Positions 3-15,591 of a stretch of 16,351 nucleotides of DNA are shown here, piece after piece; the stretch's first letter is position 1, and the number at the start of each line of letters is the position of its first letter. The translations under genes were made by a program, and so were the position numbers. Below the pieces are notes generated by a model, which saw only the letters and a program-made list of their open reading frames with translations, was not told where the DNA came from and ran no database searches. The DNA is from Nitrospinota bacterium (lineage in GTDB: Bacteria; Nitrospinota; Nitrospinia; UBA9942): contig JACQQJ010000140.1 of assembly GCA_016207035.1 (NCBI GenBank), positions 1-16,351 of the forward strand. Reading direction: 5' to 3'.

Positions 3-80
<78 letters not shown>

Positions 81-1636: not shown

Positions 1637-1674
1637 AACTTTCAACTTTTAACTTTTAACTTTCAACTTTTTTT
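1637..1674. repeat. Tandem heptamer repeat (AACTTTY)x5 abutting the glnA SD
   Basis: The units are aactttc aactttt aactttt aactttc aacttttttt. On the minus strand this is (AAAGTTR)n, immediately 5' of the glnA RBS. Confidence 0.7.
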
Positions 1675-3701: not shown

Positions 3702-5114
3702 TTACACCTCAATAGAGCTACGAGGTAGGTGATACGCATGTGTTCCGTGTTCCTCTACATCCAGTCCTTCTAATTCTTCTTCCGGAGAAACTCGCAAATT
3801 CCCCATCATTTTTAACGCGCCGAAAAGAATCAGCCCCATTCCAAAGGCCCAAACAAAGCATGTTACAACGCCAGTTGCCTGAGCAATTAAAAGCTTTGTG
3901 CCACCGCCAAATAAAAGTCCGTTACCTGTTGTGTTTGGCATGAACATATCCTGAGCAAAAAGCCCGAGACAAAGTGTTCCAAAAGCGCCGCACATTCCAT
4001 GCACTGGAATGGCTCCAACCGGGTCATCAATATGCAGCTTGTCTAACAAAAGAACGCCAAGGACAACCACGATGCCTGCAGCGCCACCAATAATAACAGA
4101 GGAAAGCGGGCTTACATATGCGCAGGGCGCCGTGATGGCGACAAGACCGGCAAGTGCACCGTTTAAAGACATGCCGATATCCCATCTGCCAAACATCCTT
4201 TTAGAAAAAAGCAGTGCTGTGATAACACCGGCGGCGGCTGCCAGATTGGTTGTGACGGCTATATGCGCGATGTTATCCACAGTTCCTGACATTGTAGAGC
4301 CGGGATTAAACCCGAACCAGCCGAGCCACAGAATAAACACGCCAAGCGTTGCCATGGGGAGATTATGCCCCAGAATGACGTTGACGCTTCCATCTTTGTT
4401 ATATTTCCCTATGCGAGGTCCTAACATTATAGAACCTGCGAGTGCTACCCACCCGCCTACGGAATGTACGACGGTAGAGCCTGCAAAATCCCACATTCCC
4501 ATTTTTGCAAGCCAGCCTGCTCCCCATACCCAGTGCCCGAAAATCGGATAAATAATCAAGCTGATGAAAATGCTGTACCACAGATACGCTGAAAACTTTG
4601 TGCGCTCCGCCATGGCGCCGGACACAATCGTTGCCGACGTTGCCGCAAACACAAGCTGAAACATATACTTTGCGTAGATGGACACATTTGCCCACGCTAT
4701 GGGTTCAAAACTCTTTATCGGGTCACCTGCAAGAAAAAAACCTGTCGTGCCGATAAAATCGTTTCCCGTTCCAAACATCAAGCCGAATCCTATTGCCCAG
4801 TACGCAATGGAGCCAAAGCAAAAATCAAGCAGGTTTTTCATCATAATGTTGTTTGTATTTTTCGCCTGTGTAAAACCTCCTTCCACATACGCAAACCCTG
4901 CCTGCATCCAGAACACAAGAAATGCCGTTACCAGCACCCACACCATGTCTATGGCGCGCGCATGAGCGTCTAATTTTGTGGATAAATCAGTAATGGTTGG
5001 CACTGCGTCCTCCGCAAGGGACAATAGCGGCTTGCATAAAAATGCTAAAAGCATAACCACAACCCACCCCGCAAAGAATTTCCATCTCTTTCTTTGATAC
5101 TTTTTTAAAACCAT
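3702..5114 (-). CDS. amt: Ammonium transporter (Amt/MEP family), paralog of downstream amt
   Basis: The ORF track extends to 5192, but the start is set at MVLKKYQRKRW (5114). This is based on the RBS AGGGAGGG and a leader about 40 nt long that is near-identical to the amt1 start region (ccatattattatccctccct). Length is 471 aa, the same as amt1. A strong Amt signature is present. Confidence 0.9.
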   Translation of the reverse strand: MVLKKYQRKRWKFFAGWVVVMLLAFLCKPLLSLAEDAVPTITDLSTKLDAHARAIDMVWVLVTAFLVFWMQAGFAYVEGGFTQAKNTNNIMMKNLLDFCFGSIAYWAIGFGLMFGTGNDFIGTTGFFLAGDPIKSFEPIAWANVSIYAKYMFQLVFAATSATIVSGAMAERTKFSAYLWYSIFISLIIYPIFGHWVWGAGWLAKMGMWDFAGSTVVHSVGGWVALAGSIMLGPRIGKYNKDGSVNVILGHNLPMATLGVFILWLGWFGFNPGSTMSGTVDNIAHIAVTTNLAAAAGVITALLFSKRMFGRWDIGMSLNGALAGLVAITAPCAYVSPLSSVIIGGAAGIVVVLGVLLLDKLHIDDPVGAIPVHGMCGAFGTLCLGLFAQDMFMPNTTGNGLLFGGGTKLLIAQATGVVTCFVWAFGMGLILFGALKMMGNLRVSPEEELEGLDVEEHGTHAYHLPRSSIEV

Positions 5115-5181: not shown

Positions 5182-5535
<354 letters not shown>

Positions 5536-5590: not shown

Positions 5591-6718
5591 TTAAAAATAG
5601 AAGAACACATTGACTGCCACCGTATCCTGTTCTTTTACATCTGCAGTCTTTTCTTTTTTATCAAATACAGGCTTATCAGATACATCATGACGATATTCAG
5701 GTCTTATAACGAGATACTTCTTTATAGCAAACTCAGGTGTAACCGTAATCTCCCACATATCCTGTTTTGTCAATGTCCTCGCACCATCATCATCCTTAAA
5801 TATCTCTCCCCTGAGATTGAGAGAAATCATATCATTTGCAACATATCTGATATAACCTGCAAGTCCTGACCATTTGCTATCACTATTCGGGCTCGATACA
5901 TTATTAGGATCCTTCTGTTCACTCCCATAGACATAGTCAAAAGCAAGGGTAAGACGCTCCAATAAAGTAAATGACAGATTTGCATCAAAGAGGCTTCTCA
6001 TATTGCTATCGTTGTTGGTCTGTTCTGGTCCCCACATGTATTTAATATTCAGCATAGTGTTTGGTATAGGTGTCAATGCCAGATGTGTGCAAATGGTCTT
6101 CCCCCTGTTATTATCCACTACATTGTCCCATCCATTTAAGACTTCTGCTGTTAGAGAAGCCATATCATTGAATTTATACACCCCTCTTAATCCGGTATGT
6201 GTGAATGGAATGGAATAGAAAAATAGAAGAGAGCGAGAGTAGTTGTAATTCCATGCATCGTATCCCTCAATTACCTCTGCCCCCATCTCTGTGATGTATT
6301 TTCCTAAATCAAGGGCAAGTCCAGTCCCTACAGGTAATACATATCGCACATAAGCCTGTTGGATATCAAAATCATCATCAGCAGCCTGTGTTACACCGGG
6401 CCAGGAAGAGCGTATAGCTTTAGGGATTGTATACCCATACATGATATCTGTCCTATAGCCAATATCCCCTGGCTCTATAGCCTCCTTTTGAAAAACCAGC
6501 TCTGCAACATCTACATTAAAACTATTTGCATTCTCATTAAAGGGTCTAAAATTTATCTTTCTTGAATCGGGGTCATTAAAATTATAGTTATATGCTGTCG
6601 AGACAAACCCATTTACCTTAATATCCTTTAAAAGATCTCCTGCATCTACAGCATAAGAAATGCTGCAAAATGAAATAACTAAAACAAAAGCTACTGTGAA
6701 AATTTTTAAACCTTTCAT
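5591..6718 (-). CDS. Outer-membrane beta-barrel (porin-like) protein encoded with glnK-amt
   Basis: A signal peptide MKGLKIFTVAFVLVISFCSISYA is present. Composition is beta-rich with alternating aromatics. The C-terminus ...VNVFFYF is a typical OMP signature. The start is set at 6718 (RBS AGGAGGG); the ORF track gives the alternative 6742. Confidence 0.7.
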   Translation of the reverse strand: MKGLKIFTVAFVLVISFCSISYAVDAGDLLKDIKVNGFVSTAYNYNFNDPDSRKINFRPFNENANSFNVDVAELVFQKEAIEPGDIGYRTDIMYGYTIPKAIRSSWPGVTQAADDDFDIQQAYVRYVLPVGTGLALDLGKYITEMGAEVIEGYDAWNYNYSRSLLFFYSIPFTHTGLRGVYKFNDMASLTAEVLNGWDNVVDNNRGKTICTHLALTPIPNTMLNIKYMWGPEQTNNDSNMRSLFDANLSFTLLERLTLAFDYVYGSEQKDPNNVSSPNSDSKWSGLAGYIRYVANDMISLNLRGEIFKDDDGARTLTKQDMWEITVTPEFAIKKYLVIRPEYRHDVSDKPVFDKKEKTADVKEQDTVAVNVFFYF

Positions 6719-6945: not shown

Positions 6946-6952
6946 GGAAGCC

Positions 6953-6990
6953 GTTTAAACAGTTTAAACCGATTAAACCGTTCAACCTGT
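6953..6990. promoter_or_regulatory. Array of palindromic GTTTAAAC-like repeats just upstream of the sigma-54 promoter
   Basis: The units are gtttaaac / a-gtttaaac / c-gattaaac / c-gttcaac, direct repeats of a self-palindromic octamer. Candidate regulator or architectural-protein binding sites. Confidence 0.35.
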
Positions 6991-8439: not shown

Positions 8440-8451
8440 ATCTCCTCCTTC

Positions 8452-8524
8452 AAAAAATAGCAATGAGCAACAAACAACAAGCAATGAGCAATGAGTAATG
8501 AGTAATAAGTTTTTTCCTCATTGC
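8452..8524 (-). terminator. Terminator-like hairpin built from tandem heptamers (GCAATGAG/TAATGAG) after the FGE-like gene
   Basis: On the minus strand, gcaatgagg ... (ctcattg)n ... gctcattgct is followed by attttttg. It lies 3' of the FGE-like stop and immediately 5' of the SPFH RBS. Confidence 0.4.
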
Positions 8525-8541
8525 TTTCCACTCGTCACTTT

Positions 8542-9465
8542 TCACTGTTTTTTGCTCATAGTTCGTTTAACGCACCTAAATCCAATGTCTATTCTGCATG
8601 CATTTGGCTTTTCTGTGTGGCGAAAAGAGACCCGCAGGGAATTTTTATCACTTTTCCACGACCCGCCTCGGATTACCTTTAGATGGTTATTAAGCCGTGG
8701 TCTTGGATTATTTTCCTTTCCATCCATATAAAGCTCGTATCCATCTGAAGTCCACTCCCACACATTTCCTGCCATATCATTAATTCCAAAACCATTGATA
8801 CTGTAGCTTCCGACCGGCATTATCCCCCCTTTGTAAGGGGGGGAATGGGAGGCGGGTAAGCCTCTCCAGTTAGATAGGTGGGTTTCAAAATTATTACCCC
8901 ATACATACCGCATACCTTCATAACCACCACGCGCAGCATATTCCCATTGTCTCTCAGTAGGGAGAGATTTCTGAGCCCACCTGGCATAGGCATCTGCGGC
9001 ATACCAGCTTACATATATTACAGGGTAGTTCTCCTTACCTTTTGGAAATTCAGAGCTATTCCAGTCCATGAGATAGTTTTCATCTGCCTCATCGAATTTT
9101 GGATTACCTTTCTGCCAGTGGGGATTGGCAAGTATAAATCTCTGATACTGAAGATAGATAACTTCATACTGATCCATAGAAAAGTCATCCAGCTCCACTC
9201 CGTGGAGAGGTCTCTCATCAAACTCGCCATCTTCACTCCCCATAGTAAATACCCCTGCTGGAATTTCAACCATTTCTTCAGAAAATTCCCCGTGCCCAGC
9301 CCCTTCTTCAAAGGGGGATGTTTGGAGATTCGCAGGGATTACCGAGACATCCTCAACCTGTTCATTCCAGTAAAATGTGATAAGTAAGGAGCAGGAGGCA
9401 AGGAGCAAGAACCCCAAAAATTTTATTCTGAATTCTGTATTCTGAATTCTGTCTCCTGTATTCAT
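8542..9465 (-). CDS. FGE/SUMF1-sulfatase-fold lipoprotein lacking the catalytic Cys pair (NirV-like)
   Basis: Hallmarks of the FGE fold are present (GNVWEWTSD, RGGSW, GFRCV). There is no CxxxxC after RGGS, so it is probably not a true formylglycine-generating enzyme. The N-terminus MNTGDRIQNTEFRIKFLGFLLLASC has a lipobox LASC. Its ATG overlaps the stop of the upstream octahaem gene (ATGA). Confidence 0.75.
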   Translation of the reverse strand: MNTGDRIQNTEFRIKFLGFLLLASCSLLITFYWNEQVEDVSVIPANLQTSPFEEGAGHGEFSEEMVEIPAGVFTMGSEDGEFDERPLHGVELDDFSMDQYEVIYLQYQRFILANPHWQKGNPKFDEADENYLMDWNSSEFPKGKENYPVIYVSWYAADAYARWAQKSLPTERQWEYAARGGYEGMRYVWGNNFETHLSNWRGLPASHSPPYKGGIMPVGSYSINGFGINDMAGNVWEWTSDGYELYMDGKENNPRPRLNNHLKVIRGGSWKSDKNSLRVSFRHTEKPNACRIDIGFRCVKRTMSKKQ

Positions 9466-10808
9466 TTCCCCTTATCCTTCCTCTCCCTTATCTCATTTAT
9501 CATTCTCTTCAATTCCACTCTCCCCCTTGCCAGCTCATAAAAACCGTGCCACTGGGTATAATCAGGACCCATCATGGATGCCCCCATCCTTGCCCTCCTC
9601 CCCTCATGGTGCCAGTATTCAAAGAATTTAAATTCCAAATCCTCATCAAATTTATCCTTTGTTAAATACCCCAGCTTATAAAGCTCGTCCATCTCCTTTT
9701 TTATAGGTTTATAGTATTCTTCATTATAAAGAGAGATCACATTATCAAACTGCTGGTAATATCCCTCCACCCAATTCTTTGAATGACATGATAGGCAGAC
9801 CATCTGCATCCTCTCCCTTTTGTTTTTCCAGTCCTTCCTCTTTTCAGAGAGGGGCCATTTAAGCTCCCATGAGAGTCTTTCACTCACATTATGAGATGGT
9901 TCAAGCATCCCTATTCCTGACATGTGACAGGTAGCACAGGTTGGTGCCCTGAAATATTTTGTATCCCATACAGAAGGTGCTACCTCCATATTCCATTTAT
10001 GTTTTTCTGAACTGTATATCACCCCATGTTTAGATTCCATATATATCTCATACTGTGGGTGGTCAGGACCCATATGGCATGTCCCGCATGCCTCCGGTGT
10101 CCTCGCCTCTGTAATTGAAAAGAGGTGTCGTGTATGACAGGCAGTGCATGACCCTTTGCTCCCATCGGGATTGACACGGCCTATTCCATTATTGGGCCAT
10201 GTATCTTTATCAAAAATTCCATTAGATTCGCTTCGCTCACTACGAGTTTTAACCTTTATAACTGACCCATGACACTTCTCACACCCCATAACTGCAGCCG
10301 CCTTTCCTTCTATTTTATAGGCAAGTGTATCATCACCTGCCCTGTCACCTTCAAGGACTTGTCCTGACCCTGAACTTGATTCAGGGGTTTCAGGATTTTT
10401 GATGAAAGAGACAGCCTTTGAATGCATAGATTCATTAAATTCCATAACCTGTTTTGGGTGGCATCTGGAGCAGTCCTTAGGACTTACAATAGCAGAGATA
10501 ACCTCACCTTCATGTTTTCTCGCATCTGCATCAGTAGTATCAGCCTGATGACAGTCTATACAGGTAACCTGTGCCTTTGCATGATTGCTCTTCTCCCAGT
10601 CATTGACAATTCCAGGGGACAATTGGCTATGACAGAGAATACATCTCTTTGCCACATCTATCTCCCCCTTTGTCTTCTTTATTGCAAGAGCATCGGAGGA
10701 AAAAAGCAGAACGTAGAATACAGAATACAAAATACAGAATAATAATATTATGCACCATCTCTTCTGACTTCTGACTTCTGACTTCTGACTTCTGTATTCT
10801 GTATTCAT
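9462..10808 (-). CDS. Octahaem cytochrome c, HAO (hydroxylamine oxidoreductase)-family-like
   Basis: There are eight CXXCH motifs (CILCH, CIDCH, CSRCH, CEKCH, CTACH, CGTCH, CATCH, CLSCH) in about 410 mature residues. A signal peptide ...FSSDALA|IKK is present. The start is taken at ATG 10808 (MNTEYRSQK...), 15 nt inside the ORF-track GTG. Its ATG overlaps the stop of the NrfH-like gene (ATGA). Confidence 0.8.
   Translation of the reverse strand: MNTEYRSQKSEVRSQKRWCIILLFCILYSVFYVLLFSSDALAIKKTKGEIDVAKRCILCHSQLSPGIVNDWEKSNHAKAQVTCIDCHQADTTDADARKHEGEVISAIVSPKDCSRCHPKQVMEFNESMHSKAVSFIKNPETPESSSGSGQVLEGDRAGDDTLAYKIEGKAAAVMGCEKCHGSVIKVKTRSERSESNGIFDKDTWPNNGIGRVNPDGSKGSCTACHTRHLFSITEARTPEACGTCHMGPDHPQYEIYMESKHGVIYSSEKHKWNMEVAPSVWDTKYFRAPTCATCHMSGIGMLEPSHNVSERLSWELKWPLSEKRKDWKNKRERMQMVCLSCHSKNWVEGYYQQFDNVISLYNEEYYKPIKKEMDELYKLGYLTKDKFDEDLEFKFFEYWHHEGRRARMGASMMGPDYTQWHGFYELARGRVELKRMINEIRERKDKGK
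10716..10803. repeat. Heptanucleotide tandem repeats in the first 14 codons of the octahaem gene, plus an inverted copy in the signal-peptide coding region
   Basis: Plus strand 10762-10803 is (tctgact)x4 then (tctgtat)x2. On the coding strand this encodes MNTEYRSQKSEVRSQKR. Plus strand 10716-10740 (gaatacagaatacaaaatacagaat) is its reverse complement and encodes the signal-peptide h-region. The two can form a hairpin of at least 13 bp spanning the start codon. Confidence 0.85.
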
Positions 10809-11353
10809 CAACTTTCCCTCCACATATGAACCAGGTTTTGATGGCAGTTCAGACAGCTTTTTACCTCTCCCCTTTTAAATGCCTTGTGCCCTAAGAGTCC
10901 GCCCCTTTGAAGCTCTGATGGAAAGAGATTTTTATGGCATTTGAGACATGCCTCAGACCTGATATTTTTTGCCGCAGACACTTTCCACTTTTGATGGTCA
11001 AAGTCTTCAGGTCTTAATAGGAAGTGCATAATAGTATCCTTCATACCCTGTCTAACCTTTGCATACCACTTATTCATTTCCCCAGGCGGCAGATGGCAGT
11101 CAGCGCAATCTGCCACTACCCCTCTGCTGCTGTCATAATGACTTGATTTAAGATACTGCTGATATGGCTCAATCATTTCATGGCATTGTGCCGAGCAGAA
11201 TTTATTTGTAGATGAATAATGAAATGAAATCGTTGTGAGACCATAAAATATTATCAACCCTGTCGTAGTCAGGATGACGATAGCACTTATCTGTACCCTG
11301 CTCGGGGAAGGTCTCTTAAAGCCCTCATCTATGTCTGCTCTGTTTTTATCCAT
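10808..11353 (-). CDS. NapC/NirT/NrfH-family membrane-anchored tetrahaem cytochrome c (quinol dehydrogenase)
   Basis: The 181-aa protein has an N-terminal TM helix (VQISAIVILTTTGLIIFYGLTTI). There are four haem motifs. The first is non-canonical, CSAQCH (CX3CH); the others are CADCH, CLKCH, CLNCH. Confidence 0.8.
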   Translation of the reverse strand: MDKNRADIDEGFKRPSPSRVQISAIVILTTTGLIIFYGLTTISFHYSSTNKFCSAQCHEMIEPYQQYLKSSHYDSSRGVVADCADCHLPPGEMNKWYAKVRQGMKDTIMHFLLRPEDFDHQKWKVSAAKNIRSEACLKCHKNLFPSELQRGGLLGHKAFKRGEVKSCLNCHQNLVHMWRES

Positions 11354-11375
11354 TAAAGATAAGAATAGGGTACTA

Positions 11376-11440
11376 GAGCACCAGTCACCAGTGCACCAGA
11401 AAAATATTTCTATTACTGGTGTTCTGGTGTTATGGTGCTC
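11376..11440 (-). terminator. Hairpin of octamer repeats NNCACCAG; likely terminator of amt3 and a repeat-family member
   Basis: The left arm gagcaccag-tcaccag-tgcaccag pairs with the right arm ctggtgtt-ctggtgtt-atggtgctc, separated by a 16-nt loop. It directly abuts the amt3 stop and is followed on the minus strand by T-rich sequence. Confidence 0.5.
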
Positions 11441-12790
11441 TTATTTTATATTTGTTATCTGGAAATCAGGGTATGCCGCTGCCGTATGCTCTGAATAATC
11501 AAGCCCGAGATACTCCTCCTCTTCTGATACCCTGAGCCCAATTGCCTTCTTGATTAAACTGAAAATCCCATAGGAAACGAAAAATGACCAGAGAAAGGCT
11601 ATAATACTGCCTAATAGTTGAATGCCTATATTCCCAATATTAAACATCTCACCTGTTTTAAATATACCAAGTGCTAAAGTCCCCCAAACACCACAGACCC
11701 CGTGAACAGAAATTGCTCCCACAGGGTCATCTATCCTTAATCTTTCAAACTGAAGAACAGAGAAAACGACAATAACCCCTGCAATTATACCTATAATTAC
11801 AGCCCATAATGGCTCTACATGGGCACAACCGGCAGTAATAGCAACAAGGCCTGAGAGGGCACCATTGAGGGTCATTCCCACATCAGGCTTGTTAAATTTA
11901 AACCATGCTGTAATCATACCTGATATTGCTGCTGCTGAACCTGATAAGGTGGTATTTATCATAATCTGGGCAATTTTACTCCCTCCCTCAAGGGTATTGC
12001 CGGCATTAAAGCCATACCATCCAAACCACAGGATGAGTGTTCCGAGGGCTGCGAGCGGTAGGTTATGTCCGAGTATGGGGTTAATTGTTCCGTCCTTTCT
12101 GAATTTTCCGCTCCTTGGACCAAGGACAATAGTCCCTGCCAGCCCTGCCCATCCGCCAATGGCATGTATTACCGTTGAACCTGCAAAGTCATGAAAACCA
12201 AGTTTCTCAAGCCATCCATCCCCATGATAAAAGCTCCCCCAGACCCAGCTCCCAAAGACTGGATATATGAATGATGACATAGCTGCTGTAAACATGAGTG
12301 AAGCAGAGAATCTTGTCCTCTCTGCCATAGCCCCTGATACTATGGCTGCTGTTGAAGATACAAAGACCAACTGATACATCCAGAAGGCAAAGAGCCATGG
12401 GTCACGGGACTCAGCATAATCATGCAAAAAAAAGCCTTCTATGCCAAAGAGTCCATTGGAAATCCCGAACATAATGCCAAAACCTACTGCCCAGAAGACA
12501 ATTGAACTAACTGCAAAATCCATCATATTCTTCATAATGGCATTAACTGCACTCTTTGCCCGTGTGAAGCCAATCTCCACCATGATAAACCCTGCCTTCA
12601 TGAAGAAGACAAGGATCGTGGCAATACATATCCAGACAATATCCAGATTTACCTGAACATCCTCTGATGTGATAATCCTCTCTGCTGAGGAATCATTCGC
12701 ATTGATAAAATTCCAGAAAAGAGACAGGATTAAAAATTTAAAAATTATTTTCATCCTCTTTTGTGAACCAAAGGCTTGTGAGAGTTTCAT
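11441..12790 (-). CDS. amt: Ammonium transporter (Amt/MEP family), third copy
   Basis: The 449-aa ORF has an Amt signature (D..W.......FFM..GF..VE.GF.R.K, multiple TM helices). A signal peptide is present. An alternative start is M13 at 12754. Confidence 0.88.
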   Translation of the reverse strand: MKLSQAFGSQKRMKIIFKFLILSLFWNFINANDSSAERIITSEDVQVNLDIVWICIATILVFFMKAGFIMVEIGFTRAKSAVNAIMKNMMDFAVSSIVFWAVGFGIMFGISNGLFGIEGFFLHDYAESRDPWLFAFWMYQLVFVSSTAAIVSGAMAERTRFSASLMFTAAMSSFIYPVFGSWVWGSFYHGDGWLEKLGFHDFAGSTVIHAIGGWAGLAGTIVLGPRSGKFRKDGTINPILGHNLPLAALGTLILWFGWYGFNAGNTLEGGSKIAQIMINTTLSGSAAAISGMITAWFKFNKPDVGMTLNGALSGLVAITAGCAHVEPLWAVIIGIIAGVIVVFSVLQFERLRIDDPVGAISVHGVCGVWGTLALGIFKTGEMFNIGNIGIQLLGSIIAFLWSFFVSYGIFSLIKKAIGLRVSEEEEYLGLDYSEHTAAAYPDFQITNIK

Positions 12791-14048: not shown

Positions 14049-14118
14049 GGTTTTCTTTAGTTCAGGAAATTATAAAAATTTACCACAGAAGCACGGAGAC
14101 ACAGAGAAAGACAGATAG

Positions 14119-14200
14119 GACACCAGATCACCAGAGCACCAGTAAAAAAACTGGTGACTGGTGCGACCCATCCACTGGATGGGTGCCCCGGACTGGTGAC
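14119..14200. repeat. NNCACCAG octamer-repeat hairpin element inserted between ccoN and ccoO
   Basis: The sequence is acaccag-atcaccag-agcaccag-t-aaaaaaa-ctggtga-ctggtgc, then hairpin acccatcca-ctg-gatgggt, then ggactggtgac. It belongs to the same family as 11376-11440. Confidence 0.6.
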
Positions 14201-14223
14201 CTTTTCTTTATAACCACTGTGCC

Positions 14224-15591
14224 TCAGTGTATCAGTGGTTTAATCAGGTTTTTGTTCTTCGCCGTCATAGAGAGATTATAAATTAAGGATATTATACCAC
14301 CGCTAATCATCAGCCCTGATAGAGTCCTTACAAACCAGAAGGGGACCGAGAACCGTATAGAATCCATAAATGGGTTAAGTCCCCACCATATAAAACCCTG
14401 CACAACACCTCCGATAGTAAGATCTATAAACATAAGGATGATTCCGAGTGTACAAAGCCAGTAAGCCCAGCCATTCAGGCTATGAGAATACCACTCTTTT
14501 CCTGTAAGTCTTGGCCAGAGTTCTGTAATTATACCCATGAGCCAGAAACTGAAGACACCGAACATTACCAGATGGGCATGAGCCACTACCCAGTCTGTAA
14601 AGTGGATGAGCTTCTGAGCTGTAAGGGTTGACTGTATAGCACACTGAAAACATGTGACCCAGTAAAATACCATTCCAGTATAAAACCATCTTATTGGATA
14701 GTTTGTCCTTAGATAGTCACCACTCCCTTTTAGTGTCATAATAAAATTTGCAAGGACACTGGTTACAACAACTTCTATGGCAATACTTGCCACCACTGCA
14801 CTGTATTGAACATGCATGGGGACAGGCGACCACATGAAATGATGGATCCCCTGCATGGGGTAGAAGAATGCAAGCCCCCAGAAACCCATTAGACTCAAGG
14901 TATGGCTCCAGATAGGTTTCTTGATTATAGTTGGGACGAAAAAATACATCAGCCCCCAGCCCAAAGGTGTAATAAGGAGTCCGACAAAGTCATGTATATA
15001 GTTTCCAGTAATTGCCGCACCTGCTGCCCCGGGGACAAAAAATTGCGGTATATAATTTCCCATGATATAGACCATAATAATCCAGACTAAAGCCCCTATG
15101 AAATACCACAATGAAACATAGAGGGGTGCATCCTTGCTGGACTTGAGTATTGGTGGGATAAAATTTGTAGCTAAGAGAAACAGTCCTAAAGTGATGAAGG
15201 GGTCAACGAATATCGGGGTCTCTCCAAATTCAATTGCCTGGGCATATCCACCAAGAATTCCTACTGCGGTAGCAAGGACAAGAATTTGAAGGAACCAGAA
15301 TATCAACCAGCTTAATTGCCTGCTTAAAACAGGATAGCCTGAGGTCCTCGGCACTGCCCAGTACATCCCTGATAAAAGACCATTGAGAAGCCATCCATAC
15401 GCAACGGCATTTGTATGGACCATCCTGACCCTGCCTGGAGAGAAAAATTCAATTCCTTGTAACGGATAATGGTTGAGAAACTGCAGGGAATATAAAAGCC
15501 CGGCAGTAATTGACATGATAAGAAAAATTAGCGCCGCAATAATATGTGCAGTGACGAGATTATAGTTTACAGGATTCTGTCTTTCATTCAT
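14224..15591 (-). CDS. ccoN: cbb3-type cytochrome c oxidase subunit I (CcoN), haem-copper oxidase C-family
   Basis: The 455-aa polytopic protein carries CuB and haem ligand motifs (YIHDF; FFYPMQGIHHF with Tyr six residues before HH, as in cbb3 cross-link Tyr; AHAHLVMFG). Its start overlaps the stop of the upstream cytochrome c gene by 8 nt. Confidence 0.8.
   Translation of the reverse strand: MNERQNPVNYNLVTAHIIAALIFLIMSITAGLLYSLQFLNHYPLQGIEFFSPGRVRMVHTNAVAYGWLLNGLLSGMYWAVPRTSGYPVLSRQLSWLIFWFLQILVLATAVGILGGYAQAIEFGETPIFVDPFITLGLFLLATNFIPPILKSSKDAPLYVSLWYFIGALVWIIMVYIMGNYIPQFFVPGAAGAAITGNYIHDFVGLLITPLGWGLMYFFVPTIIKKPIWSHTLSLMGFWGLAFFYPMQGIHHFMWSPVPMHVQYSAVVASIAIEVVVTSVLANFIMTLKGSGDYLRTNYPIRWFYTGMVFYWVTCFQCAIQSTLTAQKLIHFTDWVVAHAHLVMFGVFSFWLMGIITELWPRLTGKEWYSHSLNGWAYWLCTLGIILMFIDLTIGGVVQGFIWWGLNPFMDSIRFSVPFWFVRTLSGLMISGGIISLIYNLSMTAKNKNLIKPLIH

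Follow-up and report, generated by a model that had tools for sequence, protein, structure and literature searches.

An inverted heptamer array at the start of an octahaem cytochrome gene in groundwater Nitrospinota is probably a REP-like element read as a Sec signal peptide

The HAO-family octahaem cytochrome c gene on contig JACQQJ010000140.1 of a groundwater Nitrospinota metagenome-assembled genome (MAG) opens with tandem heptamers, which a first-pass annotation of this DNA had taken for a classic phase-variable contingency locus or a device for dedicated translational control. Our analysis of the contig (the window, that is, the whole stretch of 16,351 nt) and of its relatives indicates that the repeat is probably an element similar to the repetitive extragenic palindromic (REP) sequences, built from inverted arrays and tolerated or co-opted as a fast-evolving Sec signal peptide, and not a dedicated on/off switch. 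In kind, the feature is best explained, judging from the sequences compared here, as a variant of known heptanucleotide or REP-like repeats. A literature search turned up neither an account of Nitrospinota arrays of this sort nor one of array-encoded signal peptides. Orthologous loci, cited by their L numbers, were gathered from NCBI, JGI and ENA assemblies, and the term clade is used for the groundwater Nitrospinota of 39-44% GC.

Heptamer arrays in the first codons

The HAO gene (9462..10808, minus strand) encodes 448 aa with eight CxxCH motifs. Immediately after its start codon, the 5' arm and loop array (10761..10805, minus strand; delimited by sequence, tandem repeat search and shuffles) consists of (AATACAG)x2, (AAGTCAG)x4 and a partial AAG, and encodes the charged n-region NTEYRSQKSEVRSQK. 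Tandem Repeats Finder (TRF) reported a period of 7 with 4.9 copies at 100% match (10761-10794) and 2.4 copies at 10790-10806, confirming the tandem heptamers seen at first inspection; the perfect units of the tract are the four AAGTCAG only, the two AATACAG units being variants. Runs of at least three units of the MTYCTGA type, present in the window at 10761-10795 and 9425-9445, appeared in 0 of 200 shuffles. Facing the array is a 3' arm (10716..10741, minus strand; TRF 10715-10741, and found by folding) of imperfect (CTGTATT)x3-3.5, the reverse complement of the AATACAG units, which encodes CILYSVFYV of the hydrophobic h-region. The inverted arms (10716-10739 and 10783-10806) measure 24 nt each and show 88% complementarity, with a gap of about 45 nt between the 5' units and the (CTGTATT) arm. 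The HAO-start element is, as the definition of the REP type has it, a hairpin-forming imperfect palindrome. The earlier proposal that the h-region is written in the reverse complement of the repeat thus holds for the two AATACAG units and fails for the four AAGTCAG units, for which the window allele has no partner arm. The exact reverse complement of AAGTCAG, CTGACTT, has TGA in one frame and therefore could not be translated; L011 has TGTCTTC in its place, at one mismatch per unit.

Translation, charge, hydropathy and the AxA site delimit a predicted Sec-type signal peptide of 42 codons, MNTEYRSQKSEVRSQKRWCIILLFCILYSVFYVLLFSSDALA (10683..10808, minus strand), with cleavage predicted before IKKT. 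The features are those of a Sec (type I) signal: an n-region net charge of +2, a best 12-aa hydropathy of 2.93, and ALA followed by IKKT. Conservation of the mature HAO protein begins at this same IKKT in all orthologues. Just 3' of the variable cassette lies CTTTTTTCCTCC (10695..10706, minus strand), a T-run with CCTCC that encodes LFSS and is an anti-Shine-Dalgarno-like partner in a short fold; the T-run is found in most HAO alleles. Translation and export of the leader are an inference: maturation of c-type cytochromes takes place in the periplasm and requires Sec export, and the only h-region available is the array-encoded one. A unit of seven shifts the frame, as had been pointed out: in simulation, a change of one or two units left a product of 17-62 aa, and a change of three units kept the frame.

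Heptamer arrays at gene boundaries

The density of arrays in the window and 19 clade loci was compared with that in nine control loci carrying homologous HAO genes (eight from other phyla, one from a 48%-GC Nitrospinae MAG). Arrays of period 7, 8, 14 or 21 numbered 6-20 per 10 kb in the clade and 0-2 in the controls. Their placement was strongly biased: among 97 arrays in 130 kb, 53 were intergenic, 34 lay in the first 150 nt of open reading frames (ORFs) and only 10 in gene cores, although cores account for 72% of the sequence (p=1e-36); most of those 10 were at ORF 3' ends. The boundary arrays include those of housekeeping genes; they stand at glnA, amt, Band7, FixO and internal operon junctions, and in the window itself all strong 7/8-nt arrays reported by TRF are at gene boundaries. 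A scan of metagenomes gave 25 loci, of which about nine belong to the clade, and few extra alleles of the window type.

Most arrays come as adjacent inverted pairs with a short A- or T-rich loop between them; 33 unique pairs were found. The purine-rich arm stood first along transcription in 27 of 30 inverted pairs (p=8e-6), a polarity that could stem from orientation-specific insertion, from an RNA-level role (e.g. a pyrimidine tract before the next Shine-Dalgarno (SD) sequence) or from replication-strand bias. At least 21 unit families are represented, some of which recur at separate loci (AAGACAG at 8 places, ACGATTT at 7, CAGTGGT at 6). The first-pass annotation had itself named repeats common at many gene starts genome-wide as what would count against a contingency locus, and because arrays also occur at many other gene starts, that reading fails. 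Where such tracts stud a whole genome, the presence of one among the first codons does not suffice to call a contingency locus.

Leaders change around a conserved enzyme

Twelve HAO leader alleles were present in 34 contigs. In all of them the ATG overlaps the stop codon of the preceding gene, and the frame is kept from there through to AxA. The n-region charge ranged from +1 to +7 and the best 12-aa hydropathy from 2.2 to 3.2, and AxA was found in every one. Across the clade, the mature HAO protein shares 77-98% identity with that of the window, yet the leader differs per species or strain, each with its own array pair, such as ATGCAAG x11 / T7 / CTTGCTT x4 (L002), AGACAGA/GGACAGA x8 / TCTTCTG x5 (L013), GATTTAC xn / TAAAATC xn followed by TGCCTAC x4, or AAGTTAC x4 ... 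GCATCTT x4. Four pairs illustrate that identity of leader DNA is uncoupled from that of mature-coding DNA. L016 and L003 are 99.7% identical in mature-coding DNA and 72% in leader DNA, their leaders of 174 and 132 nt differing by 42 nt (2 x 21). Unrelated alleles are carried by L017/L018 (97.6% mature-coding, 55% leader) and by L003/L033 (97.5% and 57%), and L018/L031 are a mosaic, with one leader (95%) on diverged genes (88.6%). Signal peptides are thus exchanged wholesale, with the mature enzyme still 97-99.7% identical at the DNA level.

The same holds beyond the HAO start: the elements turn over faster than the rest of the genome, with unrelated cassettes between flanks that are 99-100% identical. 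L003, L005 and L010, whose HAO proteins are 100% identical and whose flanks have 0-1 mismatch per 100 nt, each have in one and the same spacer a cassette unrelated to those of the other two, and the cassette borders are sharp. Coding DNA of the window, L001 and L011 is about 95% identical, but their unit families differ in the amt/NapC spacer, in the FGE-like/Band7 spacer and at the FGE-like start. The L012 scaffold has two leader alleles flanking an N-gap (1960-1975), so that both would coexist in one sample.

Changes in unit number were also seen. The FGE-like/Band7 hairpin of L004/L009 differs by one unit from that of L003/L006/L007, between flanks that are 99-100% identical. Slippage does occur in the lineage, as this hairpin and the 42-nt difference between the coding arrays of L016 and L003 show. 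In the near-clonal P0125 set (nine contigs >99.9% identical over 7.5 kb, with seven substitution columns and about nine arrays), the sole natural in-array indel was a two-unit change in the FGE-like/Band7 hairpin; in one of these contigs, L056, 14 nt of the Band7 SD region are duplicated in tandem as well (6226-6239). Hypermutability of the arrays in this set was only mild.

These data bear on the proposal that slipped-strand gain or loss of AAGTCAG units switches the octahaem enzyme on or off in a subpopulation. In its favour, the tract occupies codons 2-16, where one or two units more or less would truncate the protein as simulated; unit number is polymorphic in sister intergenic arrays of near-clonal contigs; and two leader alleles may coexist in the L012 sample. 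However, out-of-frame (OFF) HAO leaders numbered 0 in the 34 consensus contigs and their 12 alleles, and the window tract has four perfect units only. Heptamer tracts of H. influenzae hmw genes comprise 12-28 units. Further, the window and L001, which are 97.4% identical in mature-coding DNA and about 95.5% across the amt-NapC/NirT-HAO stretch, both have 2+4 units despite the 2.6% mature-coding divergence, and the leader holds two point substitutions. The P0125 set had an indel in roughly one of nine arrays, against seven substitution columns in 7.5 kb, and arrays at the density given above also stand at the boundaries of housekeeping genes. With arrays at most gene boundaries of the clade, 0 of 34 contigs out of frame and a stable unit count, we regard a phase-variable locus as very improbable. 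The comparison of copy number between orthologues, which had been suggested as a check, showed that leaders differ between strains, that all of them are in frame, and that the unit count is equal in the window and L001.

We give practically no weight to the idea that the repeats are an artefact of how a repeat-rich MAG contig was sequenced or assembled. Repeats do upset assembly, as the L002 contig ends inside an array (position 1) and N-gap duplications occur in L012 and L055 (~7440), but the window allele was recovered in two independent assemblies, the window MAG and one of a German aquifer (L001, ENA), and equivalent arrays are present in NCBI, JGI and ENA assemblies of many samples. The arrays also mislead gene callers, which pick upstream or TTG starts, with protein lengths of 422-460 aa for one gene.

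Secondary structure at the start codon

Upstream of the HAO gene lies its partner, a NapC/NirT/NrfH-type tetrahaem quinol dehydrogenase gene (10808..11353, minus strand). The NapC/NirT TGA and the HAO ATG (10808-10806) have one base in common in a TGATG overlap (10806..10810, minus strand), and this stop/start overlap is present in 12 of 12 leader alleles. The SD sequence GGAGGG (10816..10821, minus strand; identified by sequence) lies within the final codons of the NapC/NirT gene. Translational coupling through the conserved overlap appears plausible from this arrangement.

A 150-nt RNA fold of the window start had an energy of -41.7 kcal/mol (z = -3.5), pairing +4..+20 with the 3' arm and the SD with CUUUUUUCCUCC. 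Pairing of the mRNA start with the h-region segment, as first proposed, is thus borne out, except that the helix begins at about +3/+4, beside the AUG rather than across it. The accompanying claim that initiation is sequestered found no support: the cost of opening -18..+12 in a 220-nt context was 6.6 kcal/mol for the window, compared with a mean of 10.0 for the 12 HAO alleles and of 9.0 for 13 other starts of the window. Sequestering of SD and AUG by an inaccessible start was rejected on these values, and dedicated translational control of HAO was likewise not supported, its start being no harder to open than the 13 others.

A more elaborate arrangement, in which an AUG-side hairpin and a CCUCC anti-SD block independent initiation until ribosomes terminating on NapC/NirT unwind them, would fix the protein ratio or link expression to translation status. 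It could draw on the overlapping stop/start of all HAO alleles, on the 150-nt fold just described together with that of the L011 leader (z = -4.85), and on the T-run, with or without CCTCC, 3' of the cassette in most alleles. We nevertheless consider such an operator unlikely: in addition to the low opening energy, the folds of L002 (z = -1.8) and L005 (z = -1.1) were not significant, the anti-SD is absent in L003, L011 and L033, and 30 inverted pairs showed no advantage of sense over antisense folding energies (13 vs 17, p=0.14). Selection on sense-strand RNA or G.U wobble was rejected on the same 30 pairs. A promoter and terminator scan near the element yielded nothing exceeding shuffle expectation, and the reading of the T-run as part of an intrinsic terminator was dropped, as it does not come directly after the stem.

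Sister elements

Several sister elements lie on the minus strand of the window. The first codons of the FGE-sulfatase-like gene contain AATACAG GAGACAG AATTCAG AATACAG AATTCAG (9424..9463; TRF, matching MTYCTGA with one mismatch), which encodes MNTGDRIQNTEFRI. An intergenic hairpin that takes up the FGE-like/Band7 spacer (8445..8545; TRF, fold z = -3.1) opposes AGTGAAA/AGCAATG to CTCATTG units, and another in the amt/NapC-NirT spacer (11365..11441; fold -35.2 kcal/mol, z = -7.0) opposes AACACCAG to CTGGTG units. Upstream of a FixO-like gene, CACCAGT arrays around a T7 loop are nested within an outer pair of 8-mer arrays, TCTCTGTG/TCTCCGTG (14097..14240; fold -60.1 kcal/mol, z = -4.9); this nested hairpin was missed by the inverted-repeat search and recovered by folding. 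A direct array, (GAAAGTT/AAAAGTT)x5 (1637..1670; TRF), stands immediately upstream of the glnA SD.

The HAO, FGE-sulfatase-like and Band7 genes all start with ATGAATACAG (MNT...; 10806-10797, 9465-9456 and ~8439-8430, minus strand), and the sequences suggest that one repeat unit may have spread across, or been converted between, these neighbouring starts. In the FGE-like leader, a MITE-like palindrome (GTCATTGCGAGG...CTCGCAATGAC) replaces the heptamers in L001 (3304-3420) and L003 (~1770-1900), and the HAO leader of L033 (~5030-5055) has an inserted TTGCCCTGAGCGAAGCCGAAGGG, translated PEACPERSRRV; signal peptides thus also take in read-through copies of small repeats of a second kind. L031 has at 10374-10442 an inverted pair, AGGGTTT x4 vs CTAACCC x4, whose unit has the sequence of plant-type telomere repeats.

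Relation to described repeats

The closest catalogued parallel is found in Geobacter metallireducens, where paired tandem hepta- or octanucleotides were listed as 'predicted global regulator binding sites' of classes 1-3 (Aklujkar et al. 2009, PMC2700814). Their units are GTTGCTYN (class 1), TCTCCGTS (class 2) and MTYCTGA (class 3; PMC2700814, Fig. S5, Table S4), and a class 3 site has five tandem MTYCTGA units twice, on opposite strands and ~80-110 nt apart, downstream of one operon gene and upstream of its successor. The authors guessed at IHF/HU binding, the sites being listed and never characterised, and the IS110-family element ISGme8 adjoins class 1 sites (PMC2700814). The window resembles class 3 in having at least 3-5 tandem MTYCTGA-type units and, on the opposite strand within ~100 nt, a second array, whose ATTCTGT-type units are found in Geobacter sites too; its plus strand reads CTTCTGA x4.9 and then CTTCTGTATTCTGTATTC, and ATTCTGTATTCTGA occurs verbatim in Gmet_I304A (compared via Fig. 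S5). Class 1 is resembled by ATTGCTC/GTTGCTC arrays of the window, and class 2 by its TCTCCGTG arrays and by the outer 8-mers TCTCTGTG/TCTCCGTG of the nested hairpin. Unlike the intergenic Geobacter sites, the HAO-start pair, although placed where two cistrons meet, lies within the second of the two ORFs, where it would be translated; the sister elements of the window are intergenic. The clade further differs in its at least 21 unit families and documented strain turnover, and the likeness is compatible with homology and convergence alike.

REP, BIME and REPIN sequences of Proteobacteria are likewise short imperfect palindromes at gene ends or within operons that form hairpins and vary between strains. 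REP sequences have roles in stabilising intercistronic mRNA, and IS110 elements insert at them. Unlike those of REP, the arms in the clade are tandem 7-mer arrays, and the HAO-start copy would be translated, whereas REP sequences are extragenic by definition, as the sister copies are.

Heptamers are the commonest long class of simple sequence repeats (SSRs) in repeat-rich prokaryotic genomes (Mrazek et al. 2007), and TAACTGA arrays precede start codons in Beggiatoaceae (MacGregor 2015, PMC4679880). As with these arrays and the cyanobacterial short tandemly repeated repetitive (STRR) sequences, the tandem heptamers of the clade are enriched in intergenic DNA just upstream of starts and are occasionally in frame at protein termini. 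In BOGUAY, by contrast, TAACTGA dominates and its arrays are mostly direct, with a single indirect repeat, whereas the clade has many unit families, mostly in inverted, purine-first pairs. The HAO tract shares with SSR phase variation (H. influenzae hmw heptamers, PMC8262952, PMC12721329; tetranucleotide loci) a unit that is not a multiple of three near the gene's 5' end and a number of units that slippage changes. Phase-variable tracts are long, gene-specific, usually at genes for the surface or for host interaction, variable in populations and often OFF; the HAO tract is short, of a kind seen genome-wide, unchanged from the window to L001, and in frame in 34 of 34 contigs. Lastly, the tandem repeats of Borgs (PMC9879509) are also fast-evolving, translated, held in frame by selection and a source of new protein segments. 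Those repeats are described as making intrinsically disordered regions, unlike the 7-nt units considered here, which cycle through three frames, form inverted pairs and would build signal peptides.

Proposed origin and selection of the leader element

We propose that the HAO 5' repeat belongs to a class of hairpins found throughout the lineage, built from inverted tandem repeats of 7-8-nt units and situated at most cistron boundaries. Usually their purine-rich array comes first, and an A/T-rich loop separates it from the pyrimidine-rich one. Since the NapC/NirT stop overlaps the HAO start, with no spacer, the element would fall inside the HAO reading frame. Its purine-rich arm would then give a long positively charged n-region and its pyrimidine-rich arm a hydrophobic h-region, so that the purine-first polarity would account for the n-then-h order once the element is translated; the conserved T-run, c-region and AxA site would come after the h-region. 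The element probably evolves in two ways, through units gained or lost by strand slippage and through recombination or outright replacement of the cassette, with purifying selection presumably holding it in frame, stop-free and signal-peptide-like; length changes are multiples of 21 nt, and arms are altered where the exact complement would give a stop. Of this picture, the sequences themselves show the anatomy, the distribution across the genome with its restriction to boundaries, the turnover, and the conservation of frame and of signal-peptide features. Hairpins may be tolerated in a leader because signal peptides accept almost any charged-then-hydrophobic sequence. The elements themselves would be REP-like structural or selfish DNA or RNA hairpins.

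Several considerations weigh against this interpretation. The four perfect AAGTCAG units sit unpaired in the loop, which makes the window copy a poor hairpin. With no folding advantage of the sense strand, a role at the RNA level is unproven, and the strong arm polarity in turn disfavours purely neutral DNA palindromes. The sample is limited to ~200 kb around one operon. Contig counts are not fully independent, since many of the contigs stem from samples related to one another (Rifle, NC groundwater), and assemblies are consensus sequences that would hide minority OFF variants.

On the co-opted-element interpretation, the HAO leader would be a natural case of repeat DNA translated into a functional targeting sequence. 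The link to the Geobacter class catalogued in 2009 suggests a wider, little studied family. More tentatively, a self-propagating or recombining hairpin family common to Geobacter and Nitrospinota might insert purine-first at cistron junctions and repeatedly create or replace working Sec signal peptides, an idea that we hold to be possible and less than probable. If it is true, hairpin repeats that are themselves non-coding would supply export signals ready for use and drive the very fast turnover of leaders.

Genomic context

Assignment of the octahaem cytochrome to the HAO family is based on Pfam PF13447 and on PDB matches to HAO and HAO-like proteins. A MAG protein 98% identical to it is annotated as Nitrospinota, and MBI4378690.1 is a protein from the window contig according to the protein cluster listing. 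All large ORFs of the window are on the minus strand, and they include glnA, three amt genes, PII (5182-5520), a porin, and the HAO-like octahaem cytochrome with its NapC/NirT partner. This neighbourhood looks like a nitrogen-assimilation cluster in gene content, and because of it the HAO-like enzyme may reduce nitrite or hydroxylamine to ammonium for assimilation, instead of serving respiration. A tRNA gene lies at the window edge (6-80, minus strand; Rfam RF00005, 62.8 bits) and was the sole match of an Rfam scan at gathering threshold, with none at the repeats. A 9-nt tandem array, CCGTTTAAA x3.6 (6951-6982), distinct from the heptamer class and possibly an operator, stands just upstream of a small helix-turn-helix (Xre-like) gene.

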